A stretch of 64,000 nucleotides of DNA from Saprospira sp. CCB-QB6 (GTDB taxonomy: Bacteria > Bacteroidota > Bacteroidia > Chitinophagales > Saprospiraceae). A program made the position numbers and the translations under genes. This document shows, in pieces, positions 21,883 to 57,232 of this stretch. The stretch's first letter is position 1. Every line of letters begins with the position of its first letter. The notes under the pieces were generated by a model, which was given only the letters and a program-made list of their open reading frames with translations, ran no database searches and was not told the DNA's origin. The DNA is taken from positions 1,199,886 through 1,263,885 of the forward strand of contig NZ_CP116808.1 in the NCBI RefSeq assembly GCF_028464065.1, given 5' to 3'.

Positions 21883-22130
21883 TCCCGCCACAGGCGGGCG
21901 GTTACTCCTTTTAGTCGTCGAACTGCGGCCTAAAGGCCTTGTTGTCGTTCCGCAGCTCGCTGCTGTTTTGGGGCCTCCCGCCTGCGGCGGGCGCTACGTT
22001 CCGCAGCTCGCTATTCGCTCGGCCCTGCGGCGGCTTTGCCGCCTGGGTCTGGCCCTTTGGGCCACTGCTGCACATCGCTAGGCCTGCGGCCCTTCGGGCC
22101 TGTAGATCGCAACTCCCAAAACTTTTGGCC
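21883..22130 (+). repeat. Composite GC-rich element: GTTACTCC...GTCGTCGAACTGCGG module followed by variant B
   Basis: Two abutting modules. ORFs 21842-22313 are artefacts. Confidence 0.85.
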
Positions 22131-22131
22131 C

Positions 22132-22169
22132 AAAAAAGAGCAACTGAAAATTTTCAGTTGCTCTTTTTT
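22132..22169. terminator. Bidirectional rho-independent terminator
   Basis: Perfect palindrome aaaaaagagcaactgaaaa/ttttcagttgctctttttt at the 3' end of the minus-strand injection-system cluster. Confidence 0.65.
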
Positions 22170-22183
22170 AATGATATATCTAA

Positions 22184-22975
22184 TTACTCATCCGAATCAT
22201 CATCTAAGTTCATCGCTGTAGATTGTCCCTTAGGCATCATACTCGTATCATCCCAAAGTTTAGACACCCAAAAGCGAAGAACCGCCTGTTTCTTTTCCTC
22301 TTTATCAAGATAACCATAATTTCCAGCTGTCTTGGCTTCTAATCGGAAATTGGTTTCTGTTCCCGTCCAACGGAAACTAATTTTTCGCCAAAGCAAACCA
22401 TAACTAGCTTTAACGTGCTTTACTACACCTTGACCATAAGTAGCCGTAGCAATGGCATAAGTCAAAGCATATTTAGCTCTTTTCTTTCGTCCCGCAGCAT
22501 GCGCAATAATTTCAAAGGCTTGTACGCCCTCCAAATCGGAAACGATTGGGTGCCAGCGACCATCGGCAGGGATTTCTCCTTGAACAAAGGTACCTACGCG
22601 GCCATTTGCCCCAAGCATTCCATTTACCTCTAGCTTAAAGTTGGGCAAAGTGGTCCCAATTCCAACATTACCTCCTTTGCGTAAGAAAAGGAGACTTTCA
22701 TTTTCGCCATCATTAAAGCTTAAGCCCTCGCTATGTGGAGTGGGATTCATAGAAACGCTAAACGAGGCTTGCGGGTCCCGAATGCTTTCATAGAAGCTCA
22801 TCAAGCGCTTATTTGGGCCTTGAGTGGCCAACATAAGGCCCTCCGTAGAACTTTGAGAAAAACCATCATCAACCTTATTGACGGTAGAGTCGATAAGGTC
22901 GGCAAAGTTTACTTCTGTGGGGACCATGCCCCTCTTGAATAGATTCTTGAGCGTGCTACGCGTGAGTAAAGCCAT
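22184..22975 (-). CDS. Putative baseplate-attached or tail-fibre-like protein (last gene of the cluster)
   Basis: 263 aa, co-oriented and downstream of the baseplate gene. The N-terminus (LKNLFKRGMVPTEVNFADLIDS) resembles phage fibre anchors only loosely. Confidence 0.6.
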   Translation of the reverse strand: MALLTRSTLKNLFKRGMVPTEVNFADLIDSTVNKVDDGFSQSSTEGLMLATQGPNKRLMSFYESIRDPQASFSVSMNPTPHSEGLSFNDGENESLLFLRKGGNVGIGTTLPNFKLEVNGMLGANGRVGTFVQGEIPADGRWHPIVSDLEGVQAFEIIAHAAGRKKRAKYALTYAIATATYGQGVVKHVKASYGLLWRKISFRWTGTETNFRLEAKTAGNYGYLDKEEKKQAVLRFWVSKLWDDTSMMPKGQSTAMNLDDDSDE

Positions 22976-23117
22976 TGGGTTAAATACTTTAACTTAGGTA
23001 AAGGCGGGTGAATGCCTCCAAATTTAAAAAATTGTTTGGAAAAGGCGCAGCCAAAACGATTTTATAATTTAGATTTTCTTAATAACGCCTTTATTTATTG
23101 TTTTTTGCTGCTTTTGA

Positions 23118-23285
23118 GGTGGCGGAGCCGCCTGTGAGCGAAGCGAGCCATGGCCCAGCGCTGCGCAGCAGTGGCCGCAGGCCAGACCTAGCGGGCGCAG
23201 CCCGCGCAGGGCCGAGCAGACTTGCGAGCTGCGAAGCATAGCGGCGGCCGCCCCACTATAAAGGGCGGCCGCGGGCCCCTAAAAA
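23118..23285 (-). repeat. GC-rich interspersed element, variant A reverse, plus a GCGGCCGC hairpin module
   Basis: gccagacc..gggccgagcag..., then agcggcggccgcccc..gggcggccgcgggc. Confidence 0.8.
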
Positions 23286-23307
23286 TGGTTATTCTAGGCC
23301 TAAAAAA

Positions 23308-23342
23308 GGCCCAAAAGTGCGGAAACTTCTGGGCCTAAGTTT
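23308..23342 (-). terminator. Terminator or attenuator after the baseplate gene
   Basis: On the minus strand, the hairpin ggcccagaag..cttttgggcc is followed by TTTTTT, immediately 3' of the stop at 23362. Confidence 0.45.
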
Positions 23343-23361
23343 TTATAATTTTCTAGCTCGT

Positions 23362-26300
23362 TTAATCGTCTAGTTCACGCTCTTCGGTCATTACAAAGTC
23401 TCCATCGAGCATCATATTGTCTAATCCAGCCTTGGCAGGTGATTGGAAAGCCACCTCGTCTAATAAGTAGAGTGGGTTTTTCTCGAAAGGAATGAGGACC
23501 GACCAAGGGGTAGTTGCCTTAAGTAAGGGAGAAGAAGAATTATCGATTGCGGTATCGCCTACATCAAAGCCTTCTCCGCTAGGGAATACCTGTACGGCAG
23601 AGAATTTCGTGACAAAATCGACATATTCTCTTTTTTCGATAAAGCTGAGGAGAACGTCTTTAGCTAGTGTTCCTCCTAGTTCTAATTCTCTTTGGCCGCC
23701 ATACATCCAGGGGCAGACAAAGTCCATAATATCCTTATTCAATTTTTTGAGAAAAGTACCGTTGTTCATGCCTTTTTGGAAGCGCAGACCGCCGGCTACT
23801 TTTACTCTTTCGTAAATAGGGTTACGGAGTTTAATATCGACAAAGGGGGAAGCTAAAGGAGTAAGATAATCTCGGATAGCCTCAAGAGTAGCGTTATTTA
23901 CCATAGGTAGGCGACCTTGATGAGCAGCCTTAATTCGAGGAACGACAACAAGGACCACTTGGCCTTTATCGACAAATTCTTCATGGCCAATATGGGTAAC
24001 GCATTTCACTTGAAAAATGTCGGGAAATTGATCGAGTACTAAGCGTTCATAATCCCAAGCAGACACTGCTCTTCCTTTATGGCGGAGGCGTTCGCTACTT
24101 CGGGTATAGAACTCTTTTTTATTTTCGCCAGGTCGTCCTTCAAAAGAGCCAAAAGGCTGTTGGACAGATCGAATTTGGACCAATGGATTGACCAAATTTT
24201 TGATCTTATTAGCGGCTAGTTTTTCTTCTAAGTGTTCTACTTCGTCTTCGGGTTCTCCAGCCCAGGTTGCAGAAATAGCTTGTGTTGATAGGTGAAGGAC
24301 AGTGGGCATTCGGCTTGCATCTCCGCGGAGAGAGGCTCGCAGCCAAAACTTACCTTTTTCGAAGATCGTGTTATTCTCAGAAATATCTCTGGGGATATCG
24401 AAGGTGATAATTCCAGAATTATTAAAGAAATTGGTGGTATCGTTTAGAATTTGTGTCTGAGAGAACTCCTTCCACTCATCATTTACGAGAAAGCTCCATA
24501 CAATTTCGGCTTGTTTGGCCTCACTGCTTCGGCCCTTCATCATAGAGAAATAGTCTTGATTCTCTTTGAGCTCGAAGTAGACAGAAAGAGTTGCTGGTGG
24601 GTTGAAGTCTTTGATTCCGAGGAAGAGATAAGCATCCTCGTCATAAGCGGGCAAAAGTGTGGGCTTAATTGGGCGGCCTTGAGAGAAGTTACGCATCACG
24701 CCAAAGGGGTGAATATGGAAGAGTTCTTCTACTACACCGCCAGAGCTATTCACTGTACCGATAGACATAATATTAACTTGAGCGGTTGCTGTATAGTCAA
24801 TACTCATGTTTCTGATTACAGGAGTAAAAGGTTGATTCGGAAGCTTTTTCTTCTCTTTAGTTTTGGGGTCTGCGTTATAAGCAGCCACATCAGCATAAAG
24901 ATTTGGAAACTCATCATGGGCGAATGCAGAGGGTGGATTTGTTAATTCCATACGGAAGTAGCCAGTCTGCGTTTCGCTGGTATAAGTGTCTAGTTGTTTA
25001 AGGTCTGCTTGAGGTTCGAGATCAAAAAGCTTAAGATCGATATTATCTAGGCAAGTGGCCGAGCTAATACCGTGAACGTTATCTTCATCCTGTTCAAAGA
25101 GGAAATATTCTTTGACATTATTCTTAGCTTCAGGGAAGAACTCTCCTTCTCGCAAAGCGGATAGTTTGATTCGGTAATCCTCATTTCGAACTCCTAGGCC
25201 ATACTCACGATAGTAGCCTCGGAGGCCTTTTGTATTATCGGGTAGATTATGCCAGTTAATATTGATTTTCAGATTGGTCAGTTCCTTTTTAAAGAGCTCT
25301 GTTTTTCCGATGAGAAGATAAGAACCAAGTTTTGGTGTAGGGCCAAAAGCTTGAAAAGGGATACTGCCTTCTAGTTGGCCATATTCATTGCTGAGGTTTA
25401 GGCGTTTAATTCCTTTAACCTCTACGTCGATGTTAATTCTTTCTAGGCTTAGCTCTTTAAGGAAAGAGTAAGAGTAGGTCACATTTTCATTTTGGTGAAG
25501 GACCTTCATCACAGGAAGAGTCGTGTCGAAGTCGGGGCCTAAAACGGCAGCATCGTAGCCTACAATAGCAGGAGCATTGGCTGAAACGGTAGCGAGCAGA
25601 CTAAACTCAGGGATGTTCCAATTTTCTGGAGGGAGTAGTTCGCAGCTTTTTGCTTCAATCCATCCTTCTTCTCCAGAGAGGAGTAGTTTCAGGCTATTTT
25701 TAAAAATTTTAGAGAAGGCATCTTCTTTAGAGAGCCCTTGATTACGGCTAATATCCTTAATTAAGAGATTAAGGGTATACATAGAAGACTTGTCAAATCG
25801 CATGCGCAATTTAATGCTTCTGTGTCCTTCTTCCATTTCTAAGATAGGAGCGGCCATAGCCCAACCTACTTCGGCATAGACCATTTGGCGTTCATCGGCT
25901 GCTTTCTCGAGTAGTTCTTCTCCGAAAGCGGGCCATTCCTCTTCATTATTGATAAAGCGTTTGCCTAAGCCATCTCTAGAGTTGGCAATAGGTGCGGCAT
26001 ACATATTAGTAATTAGGCGGTAAGAGCTACCGATACCAATTTTTGGATTTTTGCTTACAAAAAGCGTCTTCACCGAATCAACTTTAGCTTGATTCAATTC
26101 GATACCATAATCAGTTTTATAGCGAATAGGCTTGCCATTTTCGTCTACTCCAGCATCGAGTAGTGTACCTGCAGGCAAGAAAAAGCTATCAATATGTTTA
26201 GCTAAATTGAAATAGACATTCACCTGATCGGGTTGTAAGCCTCTTTCTTGCATTTTAAGCACATCGTAATAGTAAAAATCGAGATGCTTTTCGGTTAGGG

Positions 26301-27132
26301 TATTTAGGTGGTCCTGATTATGTTTAAAGAGTTTAACAAAAGCGATAAATAATGCTAAATCAGGGCGGTGATCATCTTTTTCTTTAAGTGATTTCTCTAG
26401 GTATTTTGGTGCTTCTTGTACGATATAGGAAAGCACACTATAAAAGGTCCGGAATTGCAGGCGGATCTTTTTGGTATAATCTTGAATTTTAAAATTGGCT
26501 CTAGGATCTTCTACTTCAATAGCGCGAGCAGAGAGCAACTTTTTAGAGGGGAACCAAATGCTATGAAAGTTCTCTTCAATTTCGTTGGGGCTATAAATCC
26601 CTGTTTGGTGAAACTCTAGATAGCGATCTTGTTCTAAGAGTTCGAGTAGGTTAGAAGAAAGCTGTTGTTTAATTGCGTTTTCCAATTCATTTTCCAGTTC
26701 ATCGGTATCGCCTGGTTGCAAGGTATTCATTTTGAGTGCATGCTCATACCAATCATTGAACTGTTTGGCCATATCGAAGACCTGGGTATACAGAGCCTTA
26801 AGCGCTTCTAGGCGACCAGCTGTGCGGGCTGCATTTTCTAGCTCAGTAATATATTTGGCGTGTTCCTGCTCAATTTTTTTAAGGTCGGTTGCAATAATTG
26901 AGGCCAAAAATACAGAAAGGTCATTGCGCAAAAAGCGCGACCAATCTCCTGCGGGGGAGTTAGTTTGGTCATAGAACTGGACCATTTCGGCATATTTGGC
27001 AGAAAAGGCAAGGAGGTCACTAGTAGAGCGTTCATCTACCTTAATATATTCTGGGATGAGGGCTTTGAGCAATCGTTGGCTCTGCGTTACGCCATTCCAG
27101 GATAGGCTAGATTTATTCTTTTTGGTACTCAT
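23362..27132 (-). CDS. Large baseplate protein (Afp11/gp6 baseplate-J-like, possibly fused with a gp7-like part)
   Basis: 1256 aa, directly downstream of the gp25-like and PAAR genes. Size and position match eCIS baseplate wedge proteins. No motif confirmed by eye. Confidence 0.7.
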   Translation of the reverse strand: MSTKKNKSSLSWNGVTQSQRLLKALIPEYIKVDERSTSDLLAFSAKYAEMVQFYDQTNSPAGDWSRFLRNDLSVFLASIIATDLKKIEQEHAKYITELENAARTAGRLEALKALYTQVFDMAKQFNDWYEHALKMNTLQPGDTDELENELENAIKQQLSSNLLELLEQDRYLEFHQTGIYSPNEIEENFHSIWFPSKKLLSARAIEVEDPRANFKIQDYTKKIRLQFRTFYSVLSYIVQEAPKYLEKSLKEKDDHRPDLALFIAFVKLFKHNQDHLNTLTEKHLDFYYYDVLKMQERGLQPDQVNVYFNLAKHIDSFFLPAGTLLDAGVDENGKPIRYKTDYGIELNQAKVDSVKTLFVSKNPKIGIGSSYRLITNMYAAPIANSRDGLGKRFINNEEEWPAFGEELLEKAADERQMVYAEVGWAMAAPILEMEEGHRSIKLRMRFDKSSMYTLNLLIKDISRNQGLSKEDAFSKIFKNSLKLLLSGEEGWIEAKSCELLPPENWNIPEFSLLATVSANAPAIVGYDAAVLGPDFDTTLPVMKVLHQNENVTYSYSFLKELSLERINIDVEVKGIKRLNLSNEYGQLEGSIPFQAFGPTPKLGSYLLIGKTELFKKELTNLKININWHNLPDNTKGLRGYYREYGLGVRNEDYRIKLSALREGEFFPEAKNNVKEYFLFEQDEDNVHGISSATCLDNIDLKLFDLEPQADLKQLDTYTSETQTGYFRMELTNPPSAFAHDEFPNLYADVAAYNADPKTKEKKKLPNQPFTPVIRNMSIDYTATAQVNIMSIGTVNSSGGVVEELFHIHPFGVMRNFSQGRPIKPTLLPAYDEDAYLFLGIKDFNPPATLSVYFELKENQDYFSMMKGRSSEAKQAEIVWSFLVNDEWKEFSQTQILNDTTNFFNNSGIITFDIPRDISENNTIFEKGKFWLRASLRGDASRMPTVLHLSTQAISATWAGEPEDEVEHLEEKLAANKIKNLVNPLVQIRSVQQPFGSFEGRPGENKKEFYTRSSERLRHKGRAVSAWDYERLVLDQFPDIFQVKCVTHIGHEEFVDKGQVVLVVVPRIKAAHQGRLPMVNNATLEAIRDYLTPLASPFVDIKLRNPIYERVKVAGGLRFQKGMNNGTFLKKLNKDIMDFVCPWMYGGQRELELGGTLAKDVLLSFIEKREYVDFVTKFSAVQVFPSGEGFDVGDTAIDNSSSPLLKATTPWSVLIPFEKNPLYLLDEVAFQSPAKAGLDNMMLDGDFVMTEERELDD

Positions 27133-27196
27133 GCTAAGGTGCGCTTAAGAGGATGGTTATTGTTGTTCTGATAGTGATAGTTGGGGCTATAGTGAT

Positions 27197-27613
27197 TTAG
27201 AGCTCGGTACCTTCTGCAAGGTAGAAAGGATAGACCATGTTATTACGAGCATTCACCCCCTTAATTTCATAAACTACATTTACATTTACACGGCCACGGA
27301 GTTGTTCGCTTTCATCTACATCGACAGAGATGAGGCGAATACGGGGCTCATGATACAGGATGGCTGTAGTAATGAGATCTTGAATCCGAATTCGGGTAGC
27401 ATTGTTAATGCTTTGAAAAGCTTGGCTATGGATATCGCAACCATAGCTAGGGTTCATGATTCGTTCGCCGGGGAGTGTAGATAATAAGATATTAAGAGAC
27501 TCCTTAATATCTTCTTCGTCTTGAGACATAACAATTCCGCGGGTAGAGTCGCTAAAACGTGGAGGGAAGCTCCAGCCTGAGCCTAAAAATGATTTTTGGA
27601 TATCGTCTGACAT
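27197..27613 (-). CDS. gp25-like baseplate wedge protein (GPW/gp25 family, Afp9-like)
   Basis: 138 aa with LSTLPGERIMNPSYGCDIH, matching the GPW_gp25 core motif. Confidence 0.85.
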   Translation of the reverse strand: MSDDIQKSFLGSGWSFPPRFSDSTRGIVMSQDEEDIKESLNILLSTLPGERIMNPSYGCDIHSQAFQSINNATRIRIQDLITTAILYHEPRIRLISVDVDESEQLRGRVNVNVVYEIKGVNARNNMVYPFYLAEGTEL

Positions 27614-27679
27614 GCTTAGAAATTTCTTATCGTCTAAAAAATTGGGATCAACTATTTATTTTAGGAGCAAAGCAGGCGC

Positions 27680-27808
27680 TGAATTGGCCTAGCGCTGTGG
27701 AAGGGTGGCCCTCAGGCCAGACCGAGGCGGCAAAGCCGCGGCCGAAGGGCCGAGCAGTCCTGCGAGCCCTGAAACCTAGCGCCGCAGCAAAGCTGCGGAG
27801 GCCCCTAA
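27680..27808 (-). repeat. GC-rich interspersed element, variant B reverse, inside the cluster
   Basis: cctagcgctgtgg..gccagaccgaggcggcaaagccgc..cctgcgagccc..gcagctttgctgcggaggcccc. Confidence 0.85.
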
Positions 27809-27812
27809 ACTA

Positions 27813-28103
27813 CTAACCAATAAGCACCGTAGGGGCTCCAGCTACCACTGCTCCGCCATGGCCACAAGAATCACCAATACGGGCAGCGGGTTTACCTTCA
27901 ATCATGACTGTTCCTGAGCCAGAAGCAATAGAGTCGCCAGCGCAGGCACAGACGGCAGAATCGCCAAGGCGGGCCGCGGGGATTCCAGTCACCATAACAG
28001 TTCCGGCACCGCTAACAATAGGTCCTCCAACATGAGGAGCTGGACCGGGGCAAACGGCGGGGCAAACGTGCATATCGCCAATTCGGGCAGAGGGCATTCC
28101 CAT
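27813..28103 (-). CDS. PAAR-domain spike tip protein
   Basis: 96 aa, Gly/Ala-rich, with two PAAR motifs (GIPAARLGD, GKPAARIGD). Confidence 0.85.
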   Translation of the reverse strand: MGMPSARIGDMHVCPAVCPGPAPHVGGPIVSGAGTVMVTGIPAARLGDSAVCACAGDSIASGSGTVMIEGKPAARIGDSCGHGGAVVAGAPTVLIG

Positions 28104-28124
28104 AGTATATTGATTTTAAACGTA

Positions 28125-29969
28125 CTAGTTAATTTTCACTAAACCACCTTTCACTTCACATAGTCCGCCGCCTTCTAGCTTAGCAGAGGCAGAACCTTTG
28201 AGTTCCATAGTGGTTGAGCCTTCTCCTTTTACAGCCAAGGCCTTAATAGAGAAATTGGCTGTGGCTTCCATTTTTGTATCGGAACCTGATTTGGTCTCGA
28301 TGTTAATGTCTGCCTCCATTTTAATATTTTTCTTGGCTTTAACGACAAAGTCTCCATCCGTTTCGAAGAGAATTCCATTTTTGTCCATCAACATTTTGTT
28401 GACATTCACGGGGTCTTCGATCAAGATCGTATCTTCATCGTCATTAAGCTCCACGATCATTTTATCCTCTGTAATAATCTTGACGATATTTTTGCCAGGA
28501 TCATCTTGAAGTTCGATACGTGTTTTTCCTTTATTGATAGAGATAGCTTTAAAGATATTGGGATCGGCAGGAATATGCGTTTCCTCGGTGGTAATACCTC
28601 TTCCGCTACTATACATAGAGCCCAAAATGACGGGATAAGTGGGATCAGCATTAAAAAAGCCAACAACCACTTCATCGCCTACTTCGGGATAAAATACAAA
28701 TCCGCAATCTTCGGTGGCATAATAATGCGCCATACGCGCCCAAACGCCTTCACCAGCTTGATCATCAATAATTGGGATATTGATTAAAACGCGAAACTCA
28801 CCATCTGGATCTGAGTCAATTTGCTTAACTACACCATGTTGTAGGCCATGAATAGCCGGTAAAGTTCCTCCTGCTGGGCGAGAGCTGGCCGTAAGGTTGG
28901 CCTCCATATAAGGTTGAGGATCCATACCTAAGCCCACCTCTGTTAACCATTGTCCTTTAAGGATAGTGTGGCGAACTTTGCTTACATAAGCATCGCCGAC
29001 AAAGCGGGTTCCAAAACCAAAAAGCTCAATTGTTTTACCCAATTCTGCTTTGGCCGAACCATAAAACTTCAGACTACCTCGAATTCGAGAGAGATGTCCT
29101 CTTTGATAAACGGAGTCTGCCCAAGACTGGATCACATCTTTAGTTACAGGAGGAGTGGTTTTGACCGTATTTTTGGGTTCAATAACGGCCCCCAACTTAG
29201 CAGAGTCCAAGTCTCCCTGTGCATTAACCTTTGGTTTAGCGCCATCAGCTGTTACAATAGCCAAATCTGTATGACTCCAACTGGTTGCACCAACCTCTTT
29301 ATATTGATAGGTTGAGTCAATATTCATATCCATCTCTACCAAGTCATTTCCATAAGAAATAACGAGTTCAGACTTCTCACTAACCGTAGGTTTCTTAATA
29401 CTAATTTCACCATCATCAATGATAGTCACCAAGCTATTCACATCAGCCCGAGAGTGTATAAAATCCCAATCAGTGCTCCAATATTGAATTAACTTCTTGT
29501 GCTTTCCTTTCGTTGCTTCCACATCCGCAGAAAGTCCAGCCTCACTCACAACTGCCGAAATAATATCCGAATCAAGCTGATCATAAAAAACCTTGTTTTT
29601 CCGGCCAACAGTTAGTTTAAGCGCTTTATCCTTACACTTGAGCACTAGAGCTGCTCCACTATAATTAGACTGCTTAATACCATGCTCTACTAAGATACCT
29701 TTATAAAGGGTTTGCTCTTTACCAGGACCATAACCTGCTTTTACCTCCACTTCTTTTCCCGGCTCAAACATGGCATCCTCAGAGGTCGGAAACTTCTGTT
29801 CCCGAGTATCTCCGTCCTTAAGCGTAATAAGAGCATAAGGAATCTTATTCAATTCCTTTACAATATCTACGCTCTCCACGACCATTGTTTTAGGCACCTC
29901 GGTTCCATCTATCAGTACAAGTACCGACAGATAGCCTTCGCCCATGCCTTTTACTGGAGAATCTGCCAT
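28125..29969 (-). CDS. VgrG / phage late-control-D-like spike protein (gp27-gp5-like, Afp8-like)
   Basis: 614 aa, with beta-rich repeats at the C-terminus and the expected position between the tube genes and PAAR. Confidence 0.75.
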   Translation of the reverse strand: MADSPVKGMGEGYLSVLVLIDGTEVPKTMVVESVDIVKELNKIPYALITLKDGDTREQKFPTSEDAMFEPGKEVEVKAGYGPGKEQTLYKGILVEHGIKQSNYSGAALVLKCKDKALKLTVGRKNKVFYDQLDSDIISAVVSEAGLSADVEATKGKHKKLIQYWSTDWDFIHSRADVNSLVTIIDDGEISIKKPTVSEKSELVISYGNDLVEMDMNIDSTYQYKEVGATSWSHTDLAIVTADGAKPKVNAQGDLDSAKLGAVIEPKNTVKTTPPVTKDVIQSWADSVYQRGHLSRIRGSLKFYGSAKAELGKTIELFGFGTRFVGDAYVSKVRHTILKGQWLTEVGLGMDPQPYMEANLTASSRPAGGTLPAIHGLQHGVVKQIDSDPDGEFRVLINIPIIDDQAGEGVWARMAHYYATEDCGFVFYPEVGDEVVVGFFNADPTYPVILGSMYSSGRGITTEETHIPADPNIFKAISINKGKTRIELQDDPGKNIVKIITEDKMIVELNDDEDTILIEDPVNVNKMLMDKNGILFETDGDFVVKAKKNIKMEADINIETKSGSDTKMEATANFSIKALAVKGEGSTTMELKGSASAKLEGGGLCEVKGGLVKIN

Positions 29970-30005
29970 TTTTCTTTATTTATCTTCTAGTTAATTGAGT
30001 CAATT

Positions 30006-30194: not shown

Positions 30195-30228
30195 AAGGTT
30201 AGTGTTTTATCTTTGAGCAGATTATTTA

Positions 30229-30346: not shown

Positions 30347-30360
30347 ATAAACGGCTTCGC

Positions 30361-31792: not shown

Positions 31793-31817
31793 AATTTATT
31801 GCTAAGCTAAATTAAGC

Positions 31818-41790: not shown

Positions 41791-41923
41791 GTGAACTGTT
41801 TTTTTGGGGCCTCCGCTGCGGCTTCGCCTTGCGGCGCTACGTTCCGCAGCTCGCTCTTCGCTCGGCCCTGCGGCGCAAGCGCCTTGGTCTGGCCTGACGG
41901 CCACTGCTGCACATCGCTAGGCC
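41791..41923 (+). repeat. GC-rich interspersed element, variant B
   Basis: TTTTTGGGGCCTCCGC..CGCAGCTCGCT..CACATCGCTAGGCC. Confidence 0.85.
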
Positions 41924-41964
41924 AAATGGATACCCTCCGCTTCAAATATCCTTTCTAATCTTTT

Positions 41965-42258
41965 GGATGGCATATATCTGCGCAAAAAATAGTGGTCCAA
42001 GCTTTCAGATGGTATGTATCTGCGCAAAAAATAGTGGTCCAAGCTTTCGGATGGCATGTATCTGCACAAAAAATAGCCGTCTAAGCTTTTGGACGGCATA
42101 TATCTGTGCAAAAAATAGCTGTCTAGGCTTTTAGACGACACATATCTCCACAAAAAATAACCGTCTAGGCTTTTGGACGACACATATCTCCACAAAAAAT
42201 AACCGTCTAGGCTTTTGGACGATACATATCTCCACAAAAAATAGCGGTCAACTCTTGG
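41965..42258. repeat. Tandem direct repeat, 42-bp unit x 7
   Basis: Units ggatggcatatatctgcgcaaaaaatagtggtccaagctttc diverge progressively. Copies 5 and 6 are identical. No spacers, so it is not a CRISPR array. Confidence 0.9.
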
Positions 42259-42304
42259 GGAGGGGGTATAAGTTGCCTAGAGACAATAAAAGCAGGGACA
42301 ACGC

Positions 42305-47269: not shown

Positions 47270-47342
47270 AAGGGCGTTTTTATCCCTTTTCTTTTTTGTA
47301 GCTTGGGACCGTCAGTTTTCTGATGGTCCCTTTTTTTATTCT

Positions 47343-47610
47343 TTTTTGGGGCCTCCGCAGCAAAGCTGCGGCGCTATGTGTACTCCCGTTGGTCATCGAA
47401 CTGGCGCCCCTATAGGGGCTGGTTGTCGCAGCTCGCAAGGCTGCTCGGCCCTTCGTATTTCGCTATGCTCAATACTCGGTCTGGCCTACGGCCACCCCTG
47501 CACAGCGCTAGGCCCTTGCAGCGGCAAAGCCGCTGCAAAATCGCATTTTGTTTAGACAGCCCTGCGGGCTGAATGGACCCGGCCGGCGGTAGGCGGCTGG
47601 TCCGTTTTTT
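47343..47610 (+). repeat. Composite GC-rich element (variant B plus a GTCATCGAACTG module and extras)
   Basis: TTTTTGGGGCCTCCGCAGCAAAGCTGCGG ... CACAGCGCTAGGCC ... ORFs 47346-47572 are artefacts. Confidence 0.8.
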
Positions 47611-49998: not shown

Positions 49999-50113
49999 AA
50001 TAAAATATCAGAAAATGTATAATAATGGGCCGATGGAAAAGATAGGCCCAAACTATGAGAAAGACAAGATTGCCTTTGTGTTCGTTCTTACTGAATGCTA
50101 ATCTATATCAAGT

Positions 50114-50470
50114 CTAGACTGCAGGATATTCCTTGCGTTTAGCATCGCTCCACAAACCTTCTAGGTTATAAAACTCTCTTTTCTCTTTACCGAAAACATG
50201 GATAACTAATGTGAAGTAATCCAATAGCCGCCAATGTCCACCTTGTTTACCTTCGATATGATTTGGGCGCTCGCCCAATTCTTCCCAAAGTGTTTTTTCT
50301 ATATTTTTGGCAATGCCGTTGATATGTGTAGAGGAATTACCATGACAAATCAAGAAAATGTTTGTGCTAGCCTCATCTACTGCAGAGAGGTCCAAAGAGA
50401 CGATATCTATAGCCTTACGGTCTTGCATAGCTTCTACAGCAACAGCTAGTAGGTCCTGTAATTGAGGCAT
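50114..50470 (-). CDS. rsfS: Ribosomal silencing factor RsfS (Iojap)
   Basis: IDIVSLDL..IFLICHGNS..DYFTLVIHVFGKEKREFYNLEGLW. Start trimmed to M at 50470. Confidence 0.8.
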   Translation of the reverse strand: MPQLQDLLAVAVEAMQDRKAIDIVSLDLSAVDEASTNIFLICHGNSSTHINGIAKNIEKTLWEELGERPNHIEGKQGGHWRLLDYFTLVIHVFGKEKREFYNLEGLWSDAKRKEYPAV

Positions 50471-50599
50471 TTTTTCTTCTTTTTGCGAAAGCTCTTGTTT
50501 ATTCAAATCGACTTATATTAAATTGTGGTCCTATTAAAAGACCAAGGAAAAATGAAAAGCCCTAAAGTTAGGGTTTAAATTCAAAAAAGCAGCTATGTT

Positions 50600-51373
50600 A
50601 TGCCCAAGCAATCAGATAACAGTCTTTTTGTCGGAAAGGTTGCCATCCGTCATAAACGCCTAGATTCGACCAACCGCTATGCGCTTGACTTCTTGTCAAA
50701 AAGTTTACCAACGGAAGGAACTGCCATTATTGCAGACGAACAGTGGGCTGGTCGTGGCCAAAAAGGCAATGCTTGGCTATCCGAAGCGGGGCAAAACATA
50801 GCTTTAAGCCTAATATTGCGTCCAAAGTTCCTTTTAGTCAAAGAGCAATTCCTTTGGAACATAGTGATTTCCTTAGCGGTGCATGAGGTACTGACAAATT
50901 GCCAGCTTAAACTGCCGCACTACATTAAGTGGCCCAATGATATTTATGTGGGTGACTTCAAAGTTGGAGGTATTCTGATTGAGAACCAATTGCGGAGCAG
51001 TTATCTTGACTGGTCTGTGGTGGGTATCGGGCTCAATATTTTCCAAAAAAGCTTTCACCCTAACTTACCTAACCCCAATGCTTTAGCCTCTCTTACAGAT
51101 AAAAAGTTGAACATTGATTCAATTCTTTCACAACTATATGTAGCGATAGAGCGTCTATACCTCAAACTGCGGCAGGGAGACCAAAACCAAGCGCTTTGGG
51201 CCCAATACGAAAGCAAGCTTTGGCGCTATAAGGAATGGGCAAAATTTCGCTGGCAGGGCCAAGAGCGAGAAGGTCGTATTTGGGGCGTAGCGCCTACGGG
51301 CCAGCTCAAAATTATTGACCGCCAAGGCCAATTACAGTTATTCAACTTTAAAGAAGTAGAATATATACTATAA
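50600..51373 (+). CDS. birA: Biotin--[acetyl-CoA-carboxylase] ligase
   Basis: GRGQKGNAWLSEAG matches the BPL motif GRGRRGRxWxS. 257 aa with no N-terminal HTH. Confidence 0.85.
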   Translation: MPKQSDNSLFVGKVAIRHKRLDSTNRYALDFLSKSLPTEGTAIIADEQWAGRGQKGNAWLSEAGQNIALSLILRPKFLLVKEQFLWNIVISLAVHEVLTNCQLKLPHYIKWPNDIYVGDFKVGGILIENQLRSSYLDWSVVGIGLNIFQKSFHPNLPNPNALASLTDKKLNIDSILSQLYVAIERLYLKLRQGDQNQALWAQYESKLWRYKEWAKFRWQGQEREGRIWGVAPTGQLKIIDRQGQLQLFNFKEVEYIL

Positions 51374-51489
51374 TTTCCTTTTTATGGGGCATATTATTTG
51401 ATATTAGATTTTTTACAATACTGACGATGTTGTAAGTTAGAGAATTCGAGGGACGAGCTTGGATTCTCTTTTTTCATGCCCTTGAGACA

Positions 51490-51921
51490 CTACTGCAGTA
51501 ATGGCGGTTCTTCTTTATCTTTGCCCTCCTCCTTAATTTCTTCTATATCTGAAAAGGGGATGTCTAAAGGTTTTTTTTCCTTTTTGGCAGACAATAAGGT
51601 CGAGCTACCAAAATCCCAAAGTGTTTTTAAGTATAAAAAGCCCAAGAATGGGCTAAAGGCTGCGATGGCCAATAAAGTTGCGCCTAGTCCCAACCAGATA
51701 TTTTTGGTATATAGTCCTTTAATGTAGTTATAAATTCTACGCAATAGCTGCCGATTGATGAGCAGAACCCCAACCGACAAAGCCGCAACGATCCACCAAA
51801 CAAACTGTTTGAGGAAACCAATTACCAAATAAATGACTATGGCCACAACAATCAGGGCTAATAGTAATTGTATAAAACGAGCCAAGGGGCTGCTCTTTTC
51901 TTTTTCTTCTAAGTTCAACAT
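51490..51921 (-). CDS. Hypothetical membrane protein
   Basis: 143 aa with three predicted TM helices. Confidence 0.5.
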   Translation of the reverse strand: MLNLEEKEKSSPLARFIQLLLALIVVAIVIYLVIGFLKQFVWWIVAALSVGVLLINRQLLRRIYNYIKGLYTKNIWLGLGATLLAIAAFSPFLGFLYLKTLWDFGSSTLLSAKKEKKPLDIPFSDIEEIKEEGKDKEEPPLLQ

Positions 51922-51994
51922 AGATCCTTATCTTTAGTCTGCTTTAAATATAGACACTTTTTGAAGGAGCTGCCTTATATTGCCTCCCTTTTTA

Positions 51995-52145
51995 GCTGCT
52001 ACAGAGGCGCGAAGCGCCTTGGCTGAGGGATGGAAAGTGGTGCGGCGCAGCCGCAGACCCAGCGGGCGTAGCCCGCGCAGGGCCGAGCGAACAGCGAGCC
52101 ACGACACAGCCCGACCCGCCCGCAGGGTGGGGCAGCCCCAAAATA
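51995..52145 (-). repeat. GC-rich interspersed element, variant A reverse
   Basis: ...gggccgagcgaacagcgagcc..cacagcccgacccg..ggggcagccccaaaat. Confidence 0.85.
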
Positions 52146-52179
52146 AAATGCCAAACAAGCCGCCAATTTTTAGTCTATT

Positions 52180-53991
52180 ATGAATAAAGAGGATTACCAA
52201 AAGCTTTTGCCCAGCTTGCCTACAGATCCGGGTGTTTATCGATTTATTGGGGCTGATGAGGAGATTTTATACATTGGAAAAGCCAAAAATCTCAAGAAGC
52301 GGATTGCCTCCTATTTTACGAGTCGCAAAGATATGCGCCGTAAAACGAAGCGGATGGTTATGGCTGCCAAAAAGCTCAATTATACGCTGGTAGAAACGGA
52401 GCAAGATGCGCTTTTGCTAGAGGCCACGTTAATCAAAAAGCATCAGCCGCGTTATAATGTGGCGCTCAAACACAGCCGCCCCTACCCTTATATTTGCATC
52501 AAAAAAGAGCGTTTTCCGAGGATTATGATTAGCCGAAAAGTGGTACAGGATGGCTCTAAATATTATGGCCCATATGTCTCTAAAAAGCGGATGTACACGC
52601 TCTTAGAGCTAATCAAAGAGTTGTTCCAACTGCGCAGTTGTGCCCTCAATTTATCAGAGGAAAGCATTGCGGCGGGCAAGCATAAAGTTTGCCTTGAGTA
52701 CCATATTAAAAACTGCAAAGCGCCCTGTGTGGGTTTTGAATCTGAGGCCAATTATATGGACAAAATGGAGCAGGTCCAAAATATGCTAAAAGGCCAGTTG
52801 GGAGCGGTGCGCAAATACCTCAAATCGGAAATGGGTCGCTATGCCGAGGAGCTCAATTTTGAGCAGGCGCAGCGGACTAAGGTTCAATTAGCTTTGCTTG
52901 AAAATTATCAGGGAAAATCGACGGTGGTCAATGCCAATATCCGAGATTTGGATGTATTTACCTTGGCCCAAGATGAAAAAGGCGAGATGGCGTACATCAA
53001 TTACCTCAAGGTAGTGGAAGGGGCGATTATTAACACCTTTATGCTGGAGCTCAAGCAGAATTTGGATACCGAAGCTGAGGATTTACTGCTTTTTGGGATT
53101 CGAGAATTACGGGAGAAATTCCAAAGTATTGCTCCTGAAATTGTTGCGCCCTTCGAGGTTCAGCTCCCTTGGTCCGAGATCCAGCTGACGGTCCCAAAAA
53201 TTGGCGATAAGAAAAAACTGCTGGAGCTTTCTGAGAAAAATGCCAAATATTTCATCCTCCAAAAGCAAAAACAAGCCTTGGCCAAGGCCAACAAAATGGG
53301 CAAGGCCGAGCAGCTCTTAGAGATCATGAAAAAAGACCTACAAATTGATGATTTGCCCATTCATATTGAGTGTTTTGACAACTCCAATTTGCAGGGAAAC
53401 CAGCCTGTTTCGGCTATGGTGGTCTTCAAAAATGGGCGACCAGCCAAAAAAGAATATCGGCATTATCATGTCAAAACGGTAGTTGGTCCAGATGATTTTG
53501 CCTCTATGGAAGAGGTCGTTTTTCGCCGATACAAGCGCCTTTTGGAAGAGAAAAAGCCCCTCCCCCAACTGATTGTAATTGATGGGGGCAAGGGACAGCT
53601 TTCTGCGGCTGTCAAAAGCCTCAAAGCACTAGGCATTTTTGAGCGTTTGGCCATTATTGGCATTGCCAAGCGACTAGAGGAAATCTTCTTTCCCAATGAT
53701 CCCGTTCCGCTTTTGCTCTCTAAAAAATCGCCTACGCTCAAGGTCATTCAGCAAGCTCGAGATGAGGCTCACCGCTTCGCGATTAGCTTCCACCGAGATG
53801 TTCGCTCTAAGCAATTTTTGCAAAATGAGCTGCGGCAAATTCCGGGCGTTGGCGAAAAAAACCAAGAGAAATTGCTCTTGGCCTTGGGCTCTGTCAAAGA
53901 GGTCAAAAAGGCCAATTTAAGCCAATTAGAAGCCATTGTTGGGCTCAATTTGGCCCAAAAAATCCGTACTTACTTCGATGAACAAAGCTGA
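52180..53991 (+). CDS. uvrC: Excinuclease ABC subunit C
   Basis: GIY-YIG N-terminus GVYRFIGADEEILYIGKAKNLKKR, a UvrBC-like region and a C-terminal HhH. 603 aa. Confidence 0.95.
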   Translation: MNKEDYQKLLPSLPTDPGVYRFIGADEEILYIGKAKNLKKRIASYFTSRKDMRRKTKRMVMAAKKLNYTLVETEQDALLLEATLIKKHQPRYNVALKHSRPYPYICIKKERFPRIMISRKVVQDGSKYYGPYVSKKRMYTLLELIKELFQLRSCALNLSEESIAAGKHKVCLEYHIKNCKAPCVGFESEANYMDKMEQVQNMLKGQLGAVRKYLKSEMGRYAEELNFEQAQRTKVQLALLENYQGKSTVVNANIRDLDVFTLAQDEKGEMAYINYLKVVEGAIINTFMLELKQNLDTEAEDLLLFGIRELREKFQSIAPEIVAPFEVQLPWSEIQLTVPKIGDKKKLLELSEKNAKYFILQKQKQALAKANKMGKAEQLLEIMKKDLQIDDLPIHIECFDNSNLQGNQPVSAMVVFKNGRPAKKEYRHYHVKTVVGPDDFASMEEVVFRRYKRLLEEKKPLPQLIVIDGGKGQLSAAVKSLKALGIFERLAIIGIAKRLEEIFFPNDPVPLLLSKKSPTLKVIQQARDEAHRFAISFHRDVRSKQFLQNELRQIPGVGEKNQEKLLLALGSVKEVKKANLSQLEAIVGLNLAQKIRTYFDEQS

Positions 53992-54470
53992 GTAATGGCC
54001 GTCTGCATCAAAATGCCAAAACTGACGGCTACATTCAAACAAGAGGTTTGTCCATGCCCTTCAATATAAATTTTCTGATCGATCAAGGGCGCAATTTCTT
54101 CAGGCAAACCCGTTTTTTCATTGCCCACAATTAGCAAATCCTGGGCTTCAAACTGGACCTCATGCAGCATTTTGGCGCTAGGATCTACCCAAGTGGCCAT
54201 TTTTCGGCCTGAATAATTGGCGAGAAAATCGGCTACATTCAGAACGGGAATCACTTCAATGTGCTCAATGGCGCCAGCCGTCCAAACCCTAGCCATTTTC
54301 TCCATTTCGGCTCTGGCAAATTTGCTCTTGCCTGGCGGTAGCAACAAATCGTTTTGGTCGTAAATATAGATTTTCTTCAAGCCATAAAATTCTGCGGTCC
54401 GAATCATCGAGGATAAGTTCGGGCGATATTGAGGCGCATGTAATAAGGCGGCAAGTTGAGGTACTGACAT
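53970..54470 (-). CDS. SpoU/TrmH-family RNA 2'-O-methyltransferase
   Basis: LLIVGNEKTGLPEEI...SLNVAVSFGI, the SPOUT motifs. 166 aa. Confidence 0.8.
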   Translation of the reverse strand: MSVPQLAALLHAPQYRPNLSSMIRTAEFYGLKKIYIYDQNDLLLPPGKSKFARAEMEKMARVWTAGAIEHIEVIPVLNVADFLANYSGRKMATWVDPSAKMLHEVQFEAQDLLIVGNEKTGLPEEIAPLIDQKIYIEGHGQTSCLNVAVSFGILMQTAITQLCSSK

Positions 54471-54483
54471 ATTTATTTTTGTT

Positions 54484-54745
54484 TTTTTGGGGCGTTACTC
54501 CTTACAGTCGTCGAACTGCGGCTTGTAGCCTTGTTGTCTGCCTGCGGCAGGCGGTTACTCCCTTCGGTCGTCGAACTGCGCCCTAAAGGGCTTGTTGTCG
54601 TTTCGCAGCTCGCTATTACTTGCTTCGCTGCGTCGGCTCCCGTTGGTCGGGTCGCTCGGCCCTGCGCGGGCTTCGCCCGCTGGGTCTGCGGCTAAGCCGC
54701 CCCCCTCCACATCGGTTATTCCCTTCGGTCATCGAACTGCGGACT
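54484..54745 (+). repeat. Composite GC-rich element (three GTTACTCC..GTCGTCGAACTGCGG modules plus variant A core)
   Basis: Triplicated module with different hairpin stems (gcggcttgtagcc / gcgccctaaagggc / gcggactaaagtcc). Confidence 0.8.
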
Positions 54746-54823
54746 AAAGTCCTTGTTGTGGCCAAAAAAGAGAGCCCCCAGCTAGCTGCGCTGGCTGGGG
54801 GCTCTTGCGTAATAGAGCAAAGT

Positions 54824-55765
54824 CTAGAGCTTCACTTCCATCAAGTTTTGGAAAGCTTTCTTACGAGCATTCAAAGCAGCCTCATCAATTTCTTTGAGGC
54901 GGTTAGGACCAAAAGCTTCAACACAGAAAGAAGCGACTACAGAACCATAAACCAAAGCACGCTTCATGCTTTCCAAAGAGTGGTCATCTTCCTGAGCCAA
55001 ATAGCCCATGAATCCACCAGCAAAGCTATCACCAGCTCCAGTAGGATCAAATACTTCTTCCAAAGGCAAAGCAGGAACAAAGAAAGTAGATTCGCCATGG
55101 AACAATAAGGCGCCATGCTCTCCTTTCTTAATTACCAAATATTTGGGCCCCATTTCACGGATTACACGAGCAGCTTTTACCAAAGAGTACTCCCCAGACA
55201 ACTGACGAGCTTCCTCATCATTGATAATTAAAATATCTACCTGCTTTAGAGCCTCTTTGAGCTCCTCCATGGCAATATCCATCCAGAAGTTCATCGTATC
55301 CATAGCGACCAATTTAGGGCGCTTTTCTAGCTGGTTCAAGACCTGCATTTGTACAGCTGGGGCAAAGTTACCCAACAAAAGATATTCTGGGCTTTTATAG
55401 CTTTCGGGCAATTGAGGGCTATAATTCTCCAATACATTGAGCTCTGTGGCCAAGGTATCCCGAGCATTCATATTCATGTGATAACGCCCTGCCCAAAAGA
55501 AAGACTTTTCGCCTTCGCGTTTCTCCAATCCATCCAAATTAACGCCTCTGGCTTCCAAAGCCGCCAACTCCTCAGCAGGAAAATCCTCACCAATTACAGA
55601 TAGCAATTGTAAATCTTTGTGAAAATGAGAAGCTGCCCAAGCAATATAAGTACCAGCACCACCAATGATGCGGTCTGCCTTGCCAAAAGGAGTTTCAATG
55701 GTATCAAAGGCAACAGTGCCCAATGTCAATAAGCTCATAGTAAAATTGATTTTTTTTCTGGGCAC
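54824..55765 (-). CDS. PfkB-family carbohydrate kinase (ribokinase-like)
   Basis: DPTGAGDSFAGGFMGYL is the PfkB signature 2. 313 aa. Confidence 0.85.
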   Translation of the reverse strand: MPRKKINFTMSLLTLGTVAFDTIETPFGKADRIIGGAGTYIAWAASHFHKDLQLLSVIGEDFPAEELAALEARGVNLDGLEKREGEKSFFWAGRYHMNMNARDTLATELNVLENYSPQLPESYKSPEYLLLGNFAPAVQMQVLNQLEKRPKLVAMDTMNFWMDIAMEELKEALKQVDILIINDEEARQLSGEYSLVKAARVIREMGPKYLVIKKGEHGALLFHGESTFFVPALPLEEVFDPTGAGDSFAGGFMGYLAQEDDHSLESMKRALVYGSVVASFCVEAFGPNRLKEIDEAALNARKKAFQNLMEVKL

Positions 55766-55936
55766 AAAAAAACAGAAAAAGGCCGAAAAAACGGCAGCCT
55801 AGCCTCCTTTTTTTGCCCTAGTCCAAAGAAACTCCATTTTTTTTATGTCTTTTTTTGCAAAAAGTTTGGCAAAACCAAAAAGGGCTCCTATATTTGCATA
55901 CGCAAAGAGGGAACAGCCCTCTAAATGCAAATATAC

Positions 55937-56010
55937 GCTTCCATAGCTCAGTTGGTTAGAGCATCTGACTGTTAATCAGAGGGTCCCTGGTTCGAGCCCA
56001 GGTGGGAGCG
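55937..56010 (+). tRNA. tRNA-Asn (anticodon GUU)
   Basis: Cloverleaf: acceptor GCTTCCA/TGGGAGC, anticodon loop CTGTTAA, T-arm GGTTCGAGCCC. Confidence 0.9.
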
Positions 56011-56035
56011 CTACTCATACACAACAATATATTTT

Positions 56036-56109
56036 GCTTCCATAGCTCAGTTGGTTAGAGCATCTGACTGTTAATCAGAGGGTCCCTGGTTCGAGCCCAG
56101 GTGGGAGCG
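56036..56109 (+). tRNA. tRNA-Asn (anticodon GUU), identical tandem copy
   Basis: Same sequence as the first copy, 26 bp downstream. Confidence 0.9.
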
Positions 56110-56112
56110 CAA

Positions 56113-56148
56113 AAGCCTGACTTCATTTGAAGTTGGGCTTTTTTATTC
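56113..56148 (+). terminator. Terminator-like hairpin after the tRNA pair
   Basis: agcctgacttca..tgaagttgggct followed by TTTTTT. Confidence 0.4.
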
Positions 56149-56991
56149 CTGCAAGCGCTTTAAGGCCTTAGGCCGCAAGCGCCACAACTTGGCCCCCGAT
56201 AAAATTGAGCGCTCTGTAGTTAAATATAATTCCGCATCTGGCCCAAAACAAAGGGCCTCTTGCTGCCGCAAAGGCAGAGCTATGCGCTGCTCTAATGGAC
56301 CAAAACGGCCCCGCTCAAAAGAAAAGCGGTACAAATGCCGCATACTTAATAAATAAAGACTTTGCTCTTCTTCTCGATAAGCTGCGGCCGTAACCGATTG
56401 CCATAAACCGCCTCTTTTTAGCTGTACACTATCGCAGAGGCGGGCCGCTTGCGGCCCCGCCTCTTTGCCCAAGGCATAGAGATAATGCCAGCCATCATGC
56501 GGGCGATGGCGGTTTTTGGTCACTATATACAAGCTATCGCCTTGGGCAAAAAGGGCCTCGGCATCAAAGTGGCGCTGCCAAGGGGCGGCGGGAAAAGCAA
56601 TTTGCTCTGGATAATAAAAGCTAATTTTTTGAGGCTGAATTTCTTTTTGGTCCAAAGCCGATTTGGGGAAAAAATAGATGCAAAGATCTTTGCGCTGATT
56701 TAAATTATTGCCCATATCGGCCAAATAGATAAATGCGCTATCAGTAGAAAGCGCCTCCCAATCTACATTAGGTGCTAAAATGTTTATACTGCGCTGCAAA
56801 TGCCCTTTTTGGTCCAATACATAAAGTAAAGCGGGATTTCCACCATCATTATGGGTATAAAAACTGCCACTGCTGTCAATCCAAAGACCAGAACTTTCCG
56901 AAATAGGCAGGCGGCCCAAAGAGCTCAAGCGGCAAGCCGATAAACTTAGGCAAAGAAGCAAAATGCCAATACAACTTTTCATAGACAGCAA
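56143..56991 (-). CDS. Lipoprotein, hypothetical (possibly a beta-propeller fold)
   Basis: MLSMKSCIGILLLCLSLSAC lipobox, 282 aa. Confidence 0.65.
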   Translation of the reverse strand: MLSMKSCIGILLLCLSLSACRLSSLGRLPISESSGLWIDSSGSFYTHNDGGNPALLYVLDQKGHLQRSINILAPNVDWEALSTDSAFIYLADMGNNLNQRKDLCIYFFPKSALDQKEIQPQKISFYYPEQIAFPAAPWQRHFDAEALFAQGDSLYIVTKNRHRPHDGWHYLYALGKEAGPQAARLCDSVQLKRGGLWQSVTAAAYREEEQSLYLLSMRHLYRFSFERGRFGPLEQRIALPLRQQEALCFGPDAELYLTTERSILSGAKLWRLRPKALKRLQE

Positions 56992-56994
56992 TTT

Positions 56995-57232
56995 TTGCGG
57001 TGGACAGGCGGCGAAGCCGCCGCAGGCTGAGGGATGGGCAGCAGTGGCCGCAGGCCAGACCGAAGCCCGCAGGGCTGAAGGGCCGAGCGAATAGCGAGCT
57101 GCGAAACGTAGCGCCCGCCGAAGGCGGGAGGCCCCAAAACAGCAGCGAGCTGCGAAACGACAACAAGGCCTTTAGACCGCAGTTCGACGACCAAAGGGAG
57201 TAACCGCCGACGAGCAAAGCGAGACGGAGGCC
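56995..57232 (-). repeat. Composite GC-rich element (variant reverse core plus GTTACTCC module reverse)
   Basis: gcggtggacaggcggcgaagccgcc..., then cgcagttcgacgaccaaagggagtaacc. ORFs 56876-57247 are artefacts. Confidence 0.8.

Follow-up and report, generated by a model that had tools for sequence, protein, structure and literature searches.

What are the short hairpin modules that recur between the genes of Saprospira sp. CCB-QB6, and by what process do they come to sit where they do? We address this question in a stretch of 64,000 nt (RefSeq assembly GCF_028464065.1, contig NZ_CP116808.1, positions 1,199,886 to 1,263,885 of the forward strand), referred to in its full length as the window, in which a preliminary description had pointed out a repeated module with a central hairpin whose stem varies by compensating substitutions, and had suggested a combinatorial construction of such elements out of sub-modules. 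We describe the module as an optional hairpin cassette of ~45-50 nt that folds by itself and forms part of a larger host repeat; the repeat family is restricted to Saprospira. The explanation that we favor, with moderate confidence, is that of a mosaic repeat whose optional hairpin cassettes are exchanged between copies by ectopic recombination or gene conversion.

A covariance model (CM R1) was built from 52 distinct genomic copies of the module, and a scan of the whole window with filters off detects six copies (Table 1) with no other match above E=0.07. The pattern TAYTCCNNNNNGTCRTCGAACTG also matches six times in the window, where 100 shuffles give an expectation of 0. These copies lie essentially where the preliminary description had placed the module, and the central hairpins that it quoted, those of copies 1, 2, 4 and 5, were read correctly. 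It had taken the copy at 47385 to be partial, which proves mistaken: copy 2 is a complete 51-nt representative of a second subtype that is frequent in Saprospira grandis DSM 2844, where it is seen ~25 more times. Each module is made up of a 2-bp mini-hairpin, a constant GTCGTCGAACTG box, a 4-5-bp hairpin of free stem sequence and a constant TTGTTGT box. Subtype 1, which measures 48 nt with its flanks, reads GGTTACTCC-CTTYG-GTCGTCGAACTG-C-(GNNC)-TAAA-(GNNC)-TTGTTGT-CG, and subtype 2 ends in GAACTGGC-(GCCCC)-TATA-(GGGGC)-TGGTTGT. The head-slot variant, copy 3, has a compensating T10/A14 pair in its small hairpin.

Table 1. Module copies and host elements in the window, with the central hairpin (left stem/loop/right stem) of each module copy
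Feature	Position	Strand	Central hairpin	Hairpin position	Basis
Module copy 1, subtype 1, 48 nt	21900-21947	+	GGCC/TAAA/GGCC	21927-21938	CM R1, 79.4 bits, E 2e-18
Module copy 2, subtype 2, 51 nt	47378-47428	+	GCCCC/TATA/GGGGC	47406-47419	CM R1, 37.1 bits, E 1e-7
Module copy 3, head slot, 47-nt variant with CTCCTTACAG	54493-54539	+	GGCT/TGT/AGCC	54520-54530	CM R1, 53.1 bits
Module copy 4, post-hairpin-1 slot	54553-54600	+	GCCC/TAAA/GGGC	54580-54591	CM R1, 79.4 bits
Module copy 5, tail slot, CACATCG-module-GGCC	54714-54761	+	GGAC/TAAA/GTCC	54741-54752	CM R1, 72.1 bits
Module copy 6, after hairpin 1 of truncated unit	57158-57205	-	GGTC/TAAA/GGCC, one G·T pair	57167-57178 (minus strand)	CM R1, 78.5 bits
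Full type-A host element, directly 3' of truncated unit	21967-22105	+			
Single host element, modules in all three slots and cassette 54615-54653	54482-54763	+			
Composite host, truncated unit and full element	56998-57240	-			

The covariation that had been proposed from the copies in the window holds on all genomic copies examined. The model matches 135 times in the window and 78 blocks of DSM 2844 taken together, with scores of up to 81 bits, and two alignments represent these copies: A2, of 52 distinct 48-nt copies, and A3, of 97 distinct copies among the 135 matches. In A2 the mini-hairpin, an AAC/GTT pairing and the central hairpin are paired in 97% of cells, with 50 cells changed on both sides as opposed to 13.8 in shuffles, and 0/500 shuffles reach the observed score. 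The central helix is paired at 95.6% in A3, with double-sided changes in all four pairs (GC45/CG41/AU4/UA1, CG63/AU19/UA5, GC85/AU6 and CG88/UA8), and shifting the structure by 1-3 columns leaves only 25-52% paired; the pair of the mini-hairpin covaries too (CG78/UA15). One mismatch in ~5-10% of the copies bridges two paired states, as GGCC/GTCC does between GGCC/GGCC and GGAC/GTCC, which is as expected from stepwise compensatory change.

The repeat that carries the module is GC-rich in a window of 43% GC, the ~21 repeat-bearing intergenic regions reaching ~65%. A host element is directional and ~120-180 nt long, and alternates conserved linkers with hairpins of free sequence. This layout can be followed in the full type-A element downstream of copy 1, which runs from the head TTTTGGGGCCTCC through hairpin 1, GGCGCTACGTT, CTCGC..GCTCGGCCC and hairpins 3 and 4 to the tail CGCTAGGCC, ending at 22084, with one additional hairpin 3' of the tail. 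Copy 1 itself belongs to a truncated host unit that has its head at 21874-21886 and hairpin 1 at 21887-21899, and it lies 3' of the latter; such a unit consists of head, hairpin 1, module and ..GCTCGCTGCTG, after which a full element begins (21874-22105 and 56998-57240). The composite host at 56998-57240 is built like that at 21874-22105, the two having 135-nt arms that are 94% complementary, and the same layout is common in the DSM 2844 blocks, at times with tandem copies of 91-99 nt. Copy 2 comes after GGCGCTATGTG of a type-A host at 47342-47514.

The module always stands inside a host element, as had been proposed in other words by calling it always fused to a core: all 115 parsed copies have a head, post-hairpin-1 or tail context and none occurs alone. 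In the head slot the order is TTTTGGGGC-module-hairpin 1. In the post-hairpin-1 slot the module takes the place of the CTA of GGCGCTACGTT, giving GGCG-module-CGTT.., and subtype 2 comes there after CTACGTT or GGGCTG. In the tail slot it takes the place of the CTA of CGCTAGGCC, giving the context seen in copy 5 and in 24 tail-slot copies of DSM 2844. The three slots are filled in any combination, including all three at once, and this last state is what had appeared as a tandem triplication at 54484-54745. A single host element fills its three slots there: its head T-run and GGGGC lie at 54482-54493, the first two module copies are 60 nt apart across hairpin 1 of the host, and the third follows 161 nt on, in the tail of the same host, whose GGCC occupies 54760-54763.

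Other cassettes of related sequence were seen in the same elements. A third optional cassette, ATTACTTGCTTCGCTGCGTCGGCTCCCGTTGGTCGGGTC, replaces the usual linker of 4-6 nt between GCTCGCT and GCTCGGCCC at 54615-54653 and is also found in L003, L009, L017, L019, L085 and L114 (L numbers denote the genomic blocks and metagenome contigs used for comparison); its start TTACTT and its CTCCCGTTGGTCGG stretch are akin to the 5' half of the module. A common variant of host hairpin 1, GCC-TCCCTTYGGTCGTC-GGC, carries the 5' half of the module, CTCCCTTYGGTCGTCG (for example in L002, L020 and L069), with related forms in the window at 12856-12880 and 57206-57229, and module and host therefore have a sub-motif in common. 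The full unit of 56998-57240 combines a type-A head with a type-B tail. At 57025-57049 the window has the type-B tail CCATCCCTCAGCC, whereas DSM 2844 block L118 has the type-A tail CATCGCTAGGCC. As both share a type-A head, the copy in the window must be a chimera, one in which the pairing of head and tail is broken. AT-rich hairpins with a T-run, akin to intrinsic terminators, stand directly upstream of the heads at 21833-21873 and 47305-47341, and the T-run overlaps or adjoins the TTTTGGGGC head.

Head and tail otherwise match one another closely. Of 182 host elements without a module, 170 have a dinucleotide directly after GGGGC that is the complement of the one preceding the tail GCC, in the combinations CT/AG (93), TG/CA (54), TT/AA (12) and CC/GG (11). 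We assembled an anchor-registered pseudo-alignment of 150 host elements from anchored segments (A4), in which this head:tail helix, P1, is 97.5% paired and contains the covarying pairs 6-52 (CG85/UA54) and 7-51 (UA86/GC46/CG8). A further long-range helix, P2, links the four bases that precede CTCGC with the four that follow hairpin 4, is paired in 91% of cells and takes many forms, GCAG/CTGC, GGGG/CCCC, AGGG/CCCT, GTGG/CCAC and GCCG/CGGC among others; its inner helix has three covarying pairs, and pairs 15-48 (CG81/GC67) and 19-44 (GC117/CG12/AU6) extend it. Over the whole of A4, 88% of cells are paired versus 73% in shuffles, and 373 cells are changed on both sides versus 150 (0/500), while structures slid along the alignment are paired at 33-57%. 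Given the covariation of P1 and P2, a single-stranded host is expected to form a three-way junction of P1, hairpin 1 and a P2 that encloses hairpins 3 and 4, the linkers between them being very short. The three module slots would be exactly the linkers of this junction, points at which an extra arm breaks no helix.

How stable these elements are can be read from sites shared between lineages. The window matches DSM 2844 block L118 and the metagenome contigs L139, L137 and L151 at ~90% identity, and together with nine pairs of a metagenome contig and a DSM 2844 block these give ~55 kb of pairwise alignments with an overall divergence of 11.3%. Host elements stand at the same sites in both lineages in 20 of 20 cases, and what they contain at these sites differs. 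A tail-slot module present in L014 corresponds to CTA in L154 (ATCG-module-GGCC vs ATCG-CTA-GGCC). L072 has a subtype-2 module that L186 lacks, and L186 has a subtype-1 module where L072 reads GGCG-CTA-CGTT in place of GGCG-module-CGTT; GGGCTG-TGTC vs GGGCTG-module-TGTC is also among the clean cases of presence and absence. An 88-nt unit of head, hairpin and module is found in L067 only. At the locus of copy 6 the 24-nt hairpin 1 of the window is missing in L151, so that the post-hairpin slot becomes a head slot, and the orthologs in L118 and L151 have GCCC/GGGC as central hairpin instead. For the host at 54.5 kb the ortholog in L137 carries other module subtypes and cassettes in the same slots. 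Copy 1 is 100% identical to its ortholog in L139, and the adjoining host at 21967-22105 shows compensatory stem changes there.

The host hairpins are replaced along with the modules. The stems of hairpin 3 differ in 10 of 16 ortholog pairs, often wholly and with constant linkers, as in GCCGCC/GGCGGC, AGCCC/GGGCT and AGCGCT/AGCGCT from three lineages, and in 9 of the 10 differing pairs a perfect stem of 5-10 bp is kept in both lineages. The invariant boxes of the module diverge by at most 4.8%, as against 24% at loop and stem positions, and the module indels fall in elements whose adjacent hairpins differ as well, that is, within larger rewritten tracts. The pattern is one of fixed location, conserved linkers and fluid cassettes. 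As modules and hairpins are swapped or missing at fixed sites within rewritten tracts, the combinatorial assembly suggested in the preliminary description is supported, by way of three alternative slots filled in any combination, the presence and absence of modules in orthologs, and the wholesale replacement of hairpins.

We propose a model of exchange among resident copies that most reasonably fits these observations. Point mutation at 11% divergence cannot replace entire stems, which makes exchange with other copies the simplest mechanism. Cassettes would spread among the copies already resident in the genome by ectopic recombination or gene conversion, with the conserved linkers providing the homology, and the module would not spread by a transposition of its own. 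Complementarity of the stems may be kept because the fold-back of a single strand matters, or it may be restored by template switching, in either case symmetrically for the two strands.

Several points weigh against this exchange model. We identified no copies that could have served as donors of the replaced tracts, and gene conversion is a step that we infer. At only ~9-13 nt the conserved linkers are short substrates for RecA-dependent recombination, and 3' of the tail-slot module there is little homology. Copies within a genome share kinship, and the shuffle controls thereby overstate significance; single-sequence folding energies of the host are not better than those of shuffles (z -0.2 and -1.6), and the case for the host fold is therefore made by covariation. 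The recurring exact swap of CTA for the module (GCG-CTA-CG, TCG-CTA-GG) could fit a site- or structure-specific enzyme, and the strong conservation of linkers and positions could reflect a real cellular function. A more far-reaching account would make the host a functional single-stranded three-way-junction fold kept at >1000 fixed intergenic sites across Saprospira lineages, the helices and plug-in arms of which, the module included, are continually rewritten by a dedicated structure-specific mechanism at the symmetric GCTA/GCTA junction and not by ordinary recombination. Structured elements of this sort, found throughout a genome and exchanging their arms, would be new in kind; we think this account unlikely.

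The distribution of the repeat bears on whether the similarity could be spurious. A scan for TAYTCCNNNNNGTCRTCGAACTG in one genome per species returns at least 120 matching 8-kb stretches; among the matches listed 78 are in S. grandis DSM 2844 and the others are single matches in unrelated taxa. Of 68 stretches found in metagenomes, 63 come from sample Ga0193958, a third Saprospira lineage with ~90% identity to the window and ~88% to DSM 2844, the window and DSM 2844 themselves being ~90% identical over 8 kb. Among 72,556 plasmids the host repeat occurs in two, both from S. grandis, at ~20 places each. By extrapolation the family would number >1000 host elements. Single pattern matches in unrelated taxa and viral contigs are what would be expected if the similarity arose by chance, from GC-rich sequence of low complexity or from an artefact of assembly, but those outside Saprospira (Larkinella, assorted metagenome-assembled genomes and four viral matches) fall by chance within coding sequence and have neither the hairpin nor the 3' box, whereas the Saprospira copies reach the model scores given above and occur in three independent assemblies, on two plasmids and at orthologous sites. 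Chance or artefact is thus scarcely credible as an explanation.

Mobile DNA is the leading competitor of the exchange model, although we regard it as unlikely. The host would be a non-autonomous transposon moved as a single strand by a hairpin-recognizing HUH/Y1 transposase, in the manner of repetitive extragenic palindromes (REPs) with their REP-associated tyrosine transposases (RAYTs) or of MITEs (miniature transposable elements with inverted repeats), and the module, of like kind but smaller, would insert site-specifically at the GCTA motifs that flank the long-range helix. A GTAG-type REP is a short palindrome tagged at one end by an unpaired GTAG (PMC3733652), and the hairpin 1 of type-A elements has GGCG-CTAC after it in nearly all of the 113 cases, the CTAC of which reads GTAG on the opposite strand; type-B elements have GGGCTG in its place, and the module itself is without GTAG. 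CGTC-type REPs, known from Bacteroidetes, have an unpaired CGTC tag, a continuous stem of 8-9 bp that opens with two A·T pairs, a loop of 4-5 nt and a CCA-like tail, and stand mostly as head-to-head dimers (PMC3733652). The module shares with them the CGTC, the AA..TT at the start of its outer helix and the 4-nt loop, but its stem is divided into 3 bp + 4 bp by a 3x2 internal loop, its tail is GTC/GTG, and dimers are absent. Also in favor of transposition are the complementary and covarying 5-bp ends of the host, the T-runs that host elements adjoin, and the presence and absence of modules with exact recurring junctions at CG-CTA. The conservation of all 20 host positions at 11% divergence is unlike active MITEs or REPINs (REP doublets forming hairpins). 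REPINs are inverted dimers of variable presence, whereas the Saprospira hosts have a direction and stand singly or in head-to-tail arrays. We see no target-site duplication and no direct repeat flanking the host elements, and the elements with module indels differ elsewhere as well, so that the indels do not look like clean insertions. No Y1 transposase and no related insertion sequence (IS) was found in ~1.1 Mb of Saprospira sequence, where tblastn with RayT and IS608 TnpA queries gave only spurious matches (DHFR and a peptidoglycan-binding protein), which is a weak test.

A multi-copy structured RNA, ranked second among the competitors and likewise improbable, would place the three-way junction in a transcript, either as a small RNA or acting in cis in messenger RNA, for instance as a 3'-end or intercistronic stabilizer or a terminator, with the module as a variable extra arm. 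Functional RNAs typically have long-range helices that covary and junction linkers that are conserved, many of the loops are UUCG-like or triloops, positions are conserved between lineages, and host elements are placed between cistrons or behind genes, in many cases right past an AT-rich terminator-like hairpin. Divergent intergenic regions are somewhat depleted, holding 34 of 210 elements, with 53 between convergent genes. Yet among the 123 elements between co-directional open reading frames (ORFs), 63 are co-oriented with the genes and 60 antisense to them, a random orientation in spite of directional linkers, and G·T (G·U in RNA) pairs are in no excess over A·C, at 18 vs 15 on the transcribed strand and 194 vs 169 on the element strand. 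Neither strand is thus singled out as a functional RNA, and the constraint on pairing, or the mechanism that restores it, looks symmetric between the strands. Searching Rfam 15 over the whole window at gathering thresholds returns four transfer RNAs (tRNAs) only, and lowering the threshold to E up to 5 over 54300-58800 and 21700-23400 yields no match on the module or host core. No U-run follows the structure in either orientation, and an extrapolated copy number of this size is unusual for an RNA gene. An origin from tRNA or transfer-messenger RNA was considered separately and rejected, ARAGORN and Rfam giving only four genuine tRNA genes.

Exchange of cassettes within a fixed host thus remains our preferred explanation, and the comparison with known repeats shows what is particular to it. 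With REPs and the bacterial interspersed mosaic elements (BIMEs) that they compose (PMC3733652, which also mentions mosaic regions of Neisseria; PMC2817692) the Saprospira repeat shares a high copy number, an extragenic location between cistrons and after genes, a GC content above that of the genome, hairpins with alternative complementary stem residues, a mosaic of conserved motifs, and the tag-like motifs described above, CTAC/GTAG on type-A hairpin 1 and CGTC in the module. As a descriptive class, that of a BIME-like mosaic intergenic repeat fits, with 21 repeat-bearing intergenic regions in 64 kb and a variable cassette content; the alternating orientation of inverted REPs that is specific to BIMEs is absent. 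The Saprospira unit is instead a directional scaffold of 120-180 nt with long-range helices and 4-6 different hairpins, it forms no head-to-head dimers, its hairpins are replaced wholesale, and its positions are stable (20/20). MITEs and REPINs (PMC3116915, PMC3184786) are similar in being small, non-coding and abundant, with complementary ends and compensatory changes that keep the hairpin, and differ in that variation of the Saprospira repeat is an internal exchange of cassettes and not the presence or absence of whole elements between lineages. The cellular role would most likely be that of selfish or near-neutral structured DNA, REP/BIME-like, between cistrons.

Closer to the modular build are intergenic repeats confined to one genus. 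BOX of Streptococcus pneumoniae and the neisserial intergenic mosaic elements (NIME) of Neisseria consist of few sub-modules in variable number and combination with predicted stem-loops, all of which holds for the Saprospira repeat as well. BOX modules follow one another linearly (A-Bn-C), however, and dRS3 brackets the units of NIME, whereas the Saprospira module plugs into three junction linkers and replaces CTA. The GC clusters and double-hairpin elements of fungal and algal organelles are GC-rich palindromic cassettes, intergenic in an AT-richer genome and nested or combinatorial; the style of cassette is similar, the hosts and sequences are different, and the likeness is one of description only. 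No published description of the Saprospira repeats was found in the literature, and as far as could be searched they form a previously undescribed family, a variant of the bacterial mosaic intergenic repeats of REP/BIME-like kind.

Some further features of the window lie outside the repeat family. Between two host elements a 42-nt tandem repeat of ~8 copies (66-100% identity) occupies 41909-42270 and overlaps a minus-strand ORF of 106 amino acids (aa). Three adjacent paralogous genes of ~327-339 aa, 67-83% identical in stretches, are encoded on the minus strand at 8693-11792, and tandem tRNA pairs, two tRNA-Gln(ttg) and two tRNA-Asn(gtt), are found at 2098-2289 and 55937-56110.

Within the family, ORFs of >100 aa run through the GC-rich repeats at 21939-22313, 54620-55108 and 56876-57247; these are in all likelihood spurious, and annotation might mistake them for genes. 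Runs of N, either assembly gaps or masked stretches, begin within host elements in DSM 2844 blocks L009, L027 and L078, which suggests that the repeats break or confuse assemblies. In practice, broken assemblies and spurious ORFs in annotation are thus to be reckoned with in Saprospira genomes.

If the description given here holds, a single repeat family would fill most intergenic regions of Saprospira, as extrapolated from the window, and would unite three properties that are unusual together in bacterial repeats: a long-range covarying fold, positions that stay fixed at ~11% divergence, and a rapid exchange of hairpins and of an arm of 45 nt. The family would then offer a natural system for studying the concerted evolution of dispersed short repeats, the maintenance of pairing without conservation of sequence, and whether such elements act as DNA or as RNA.

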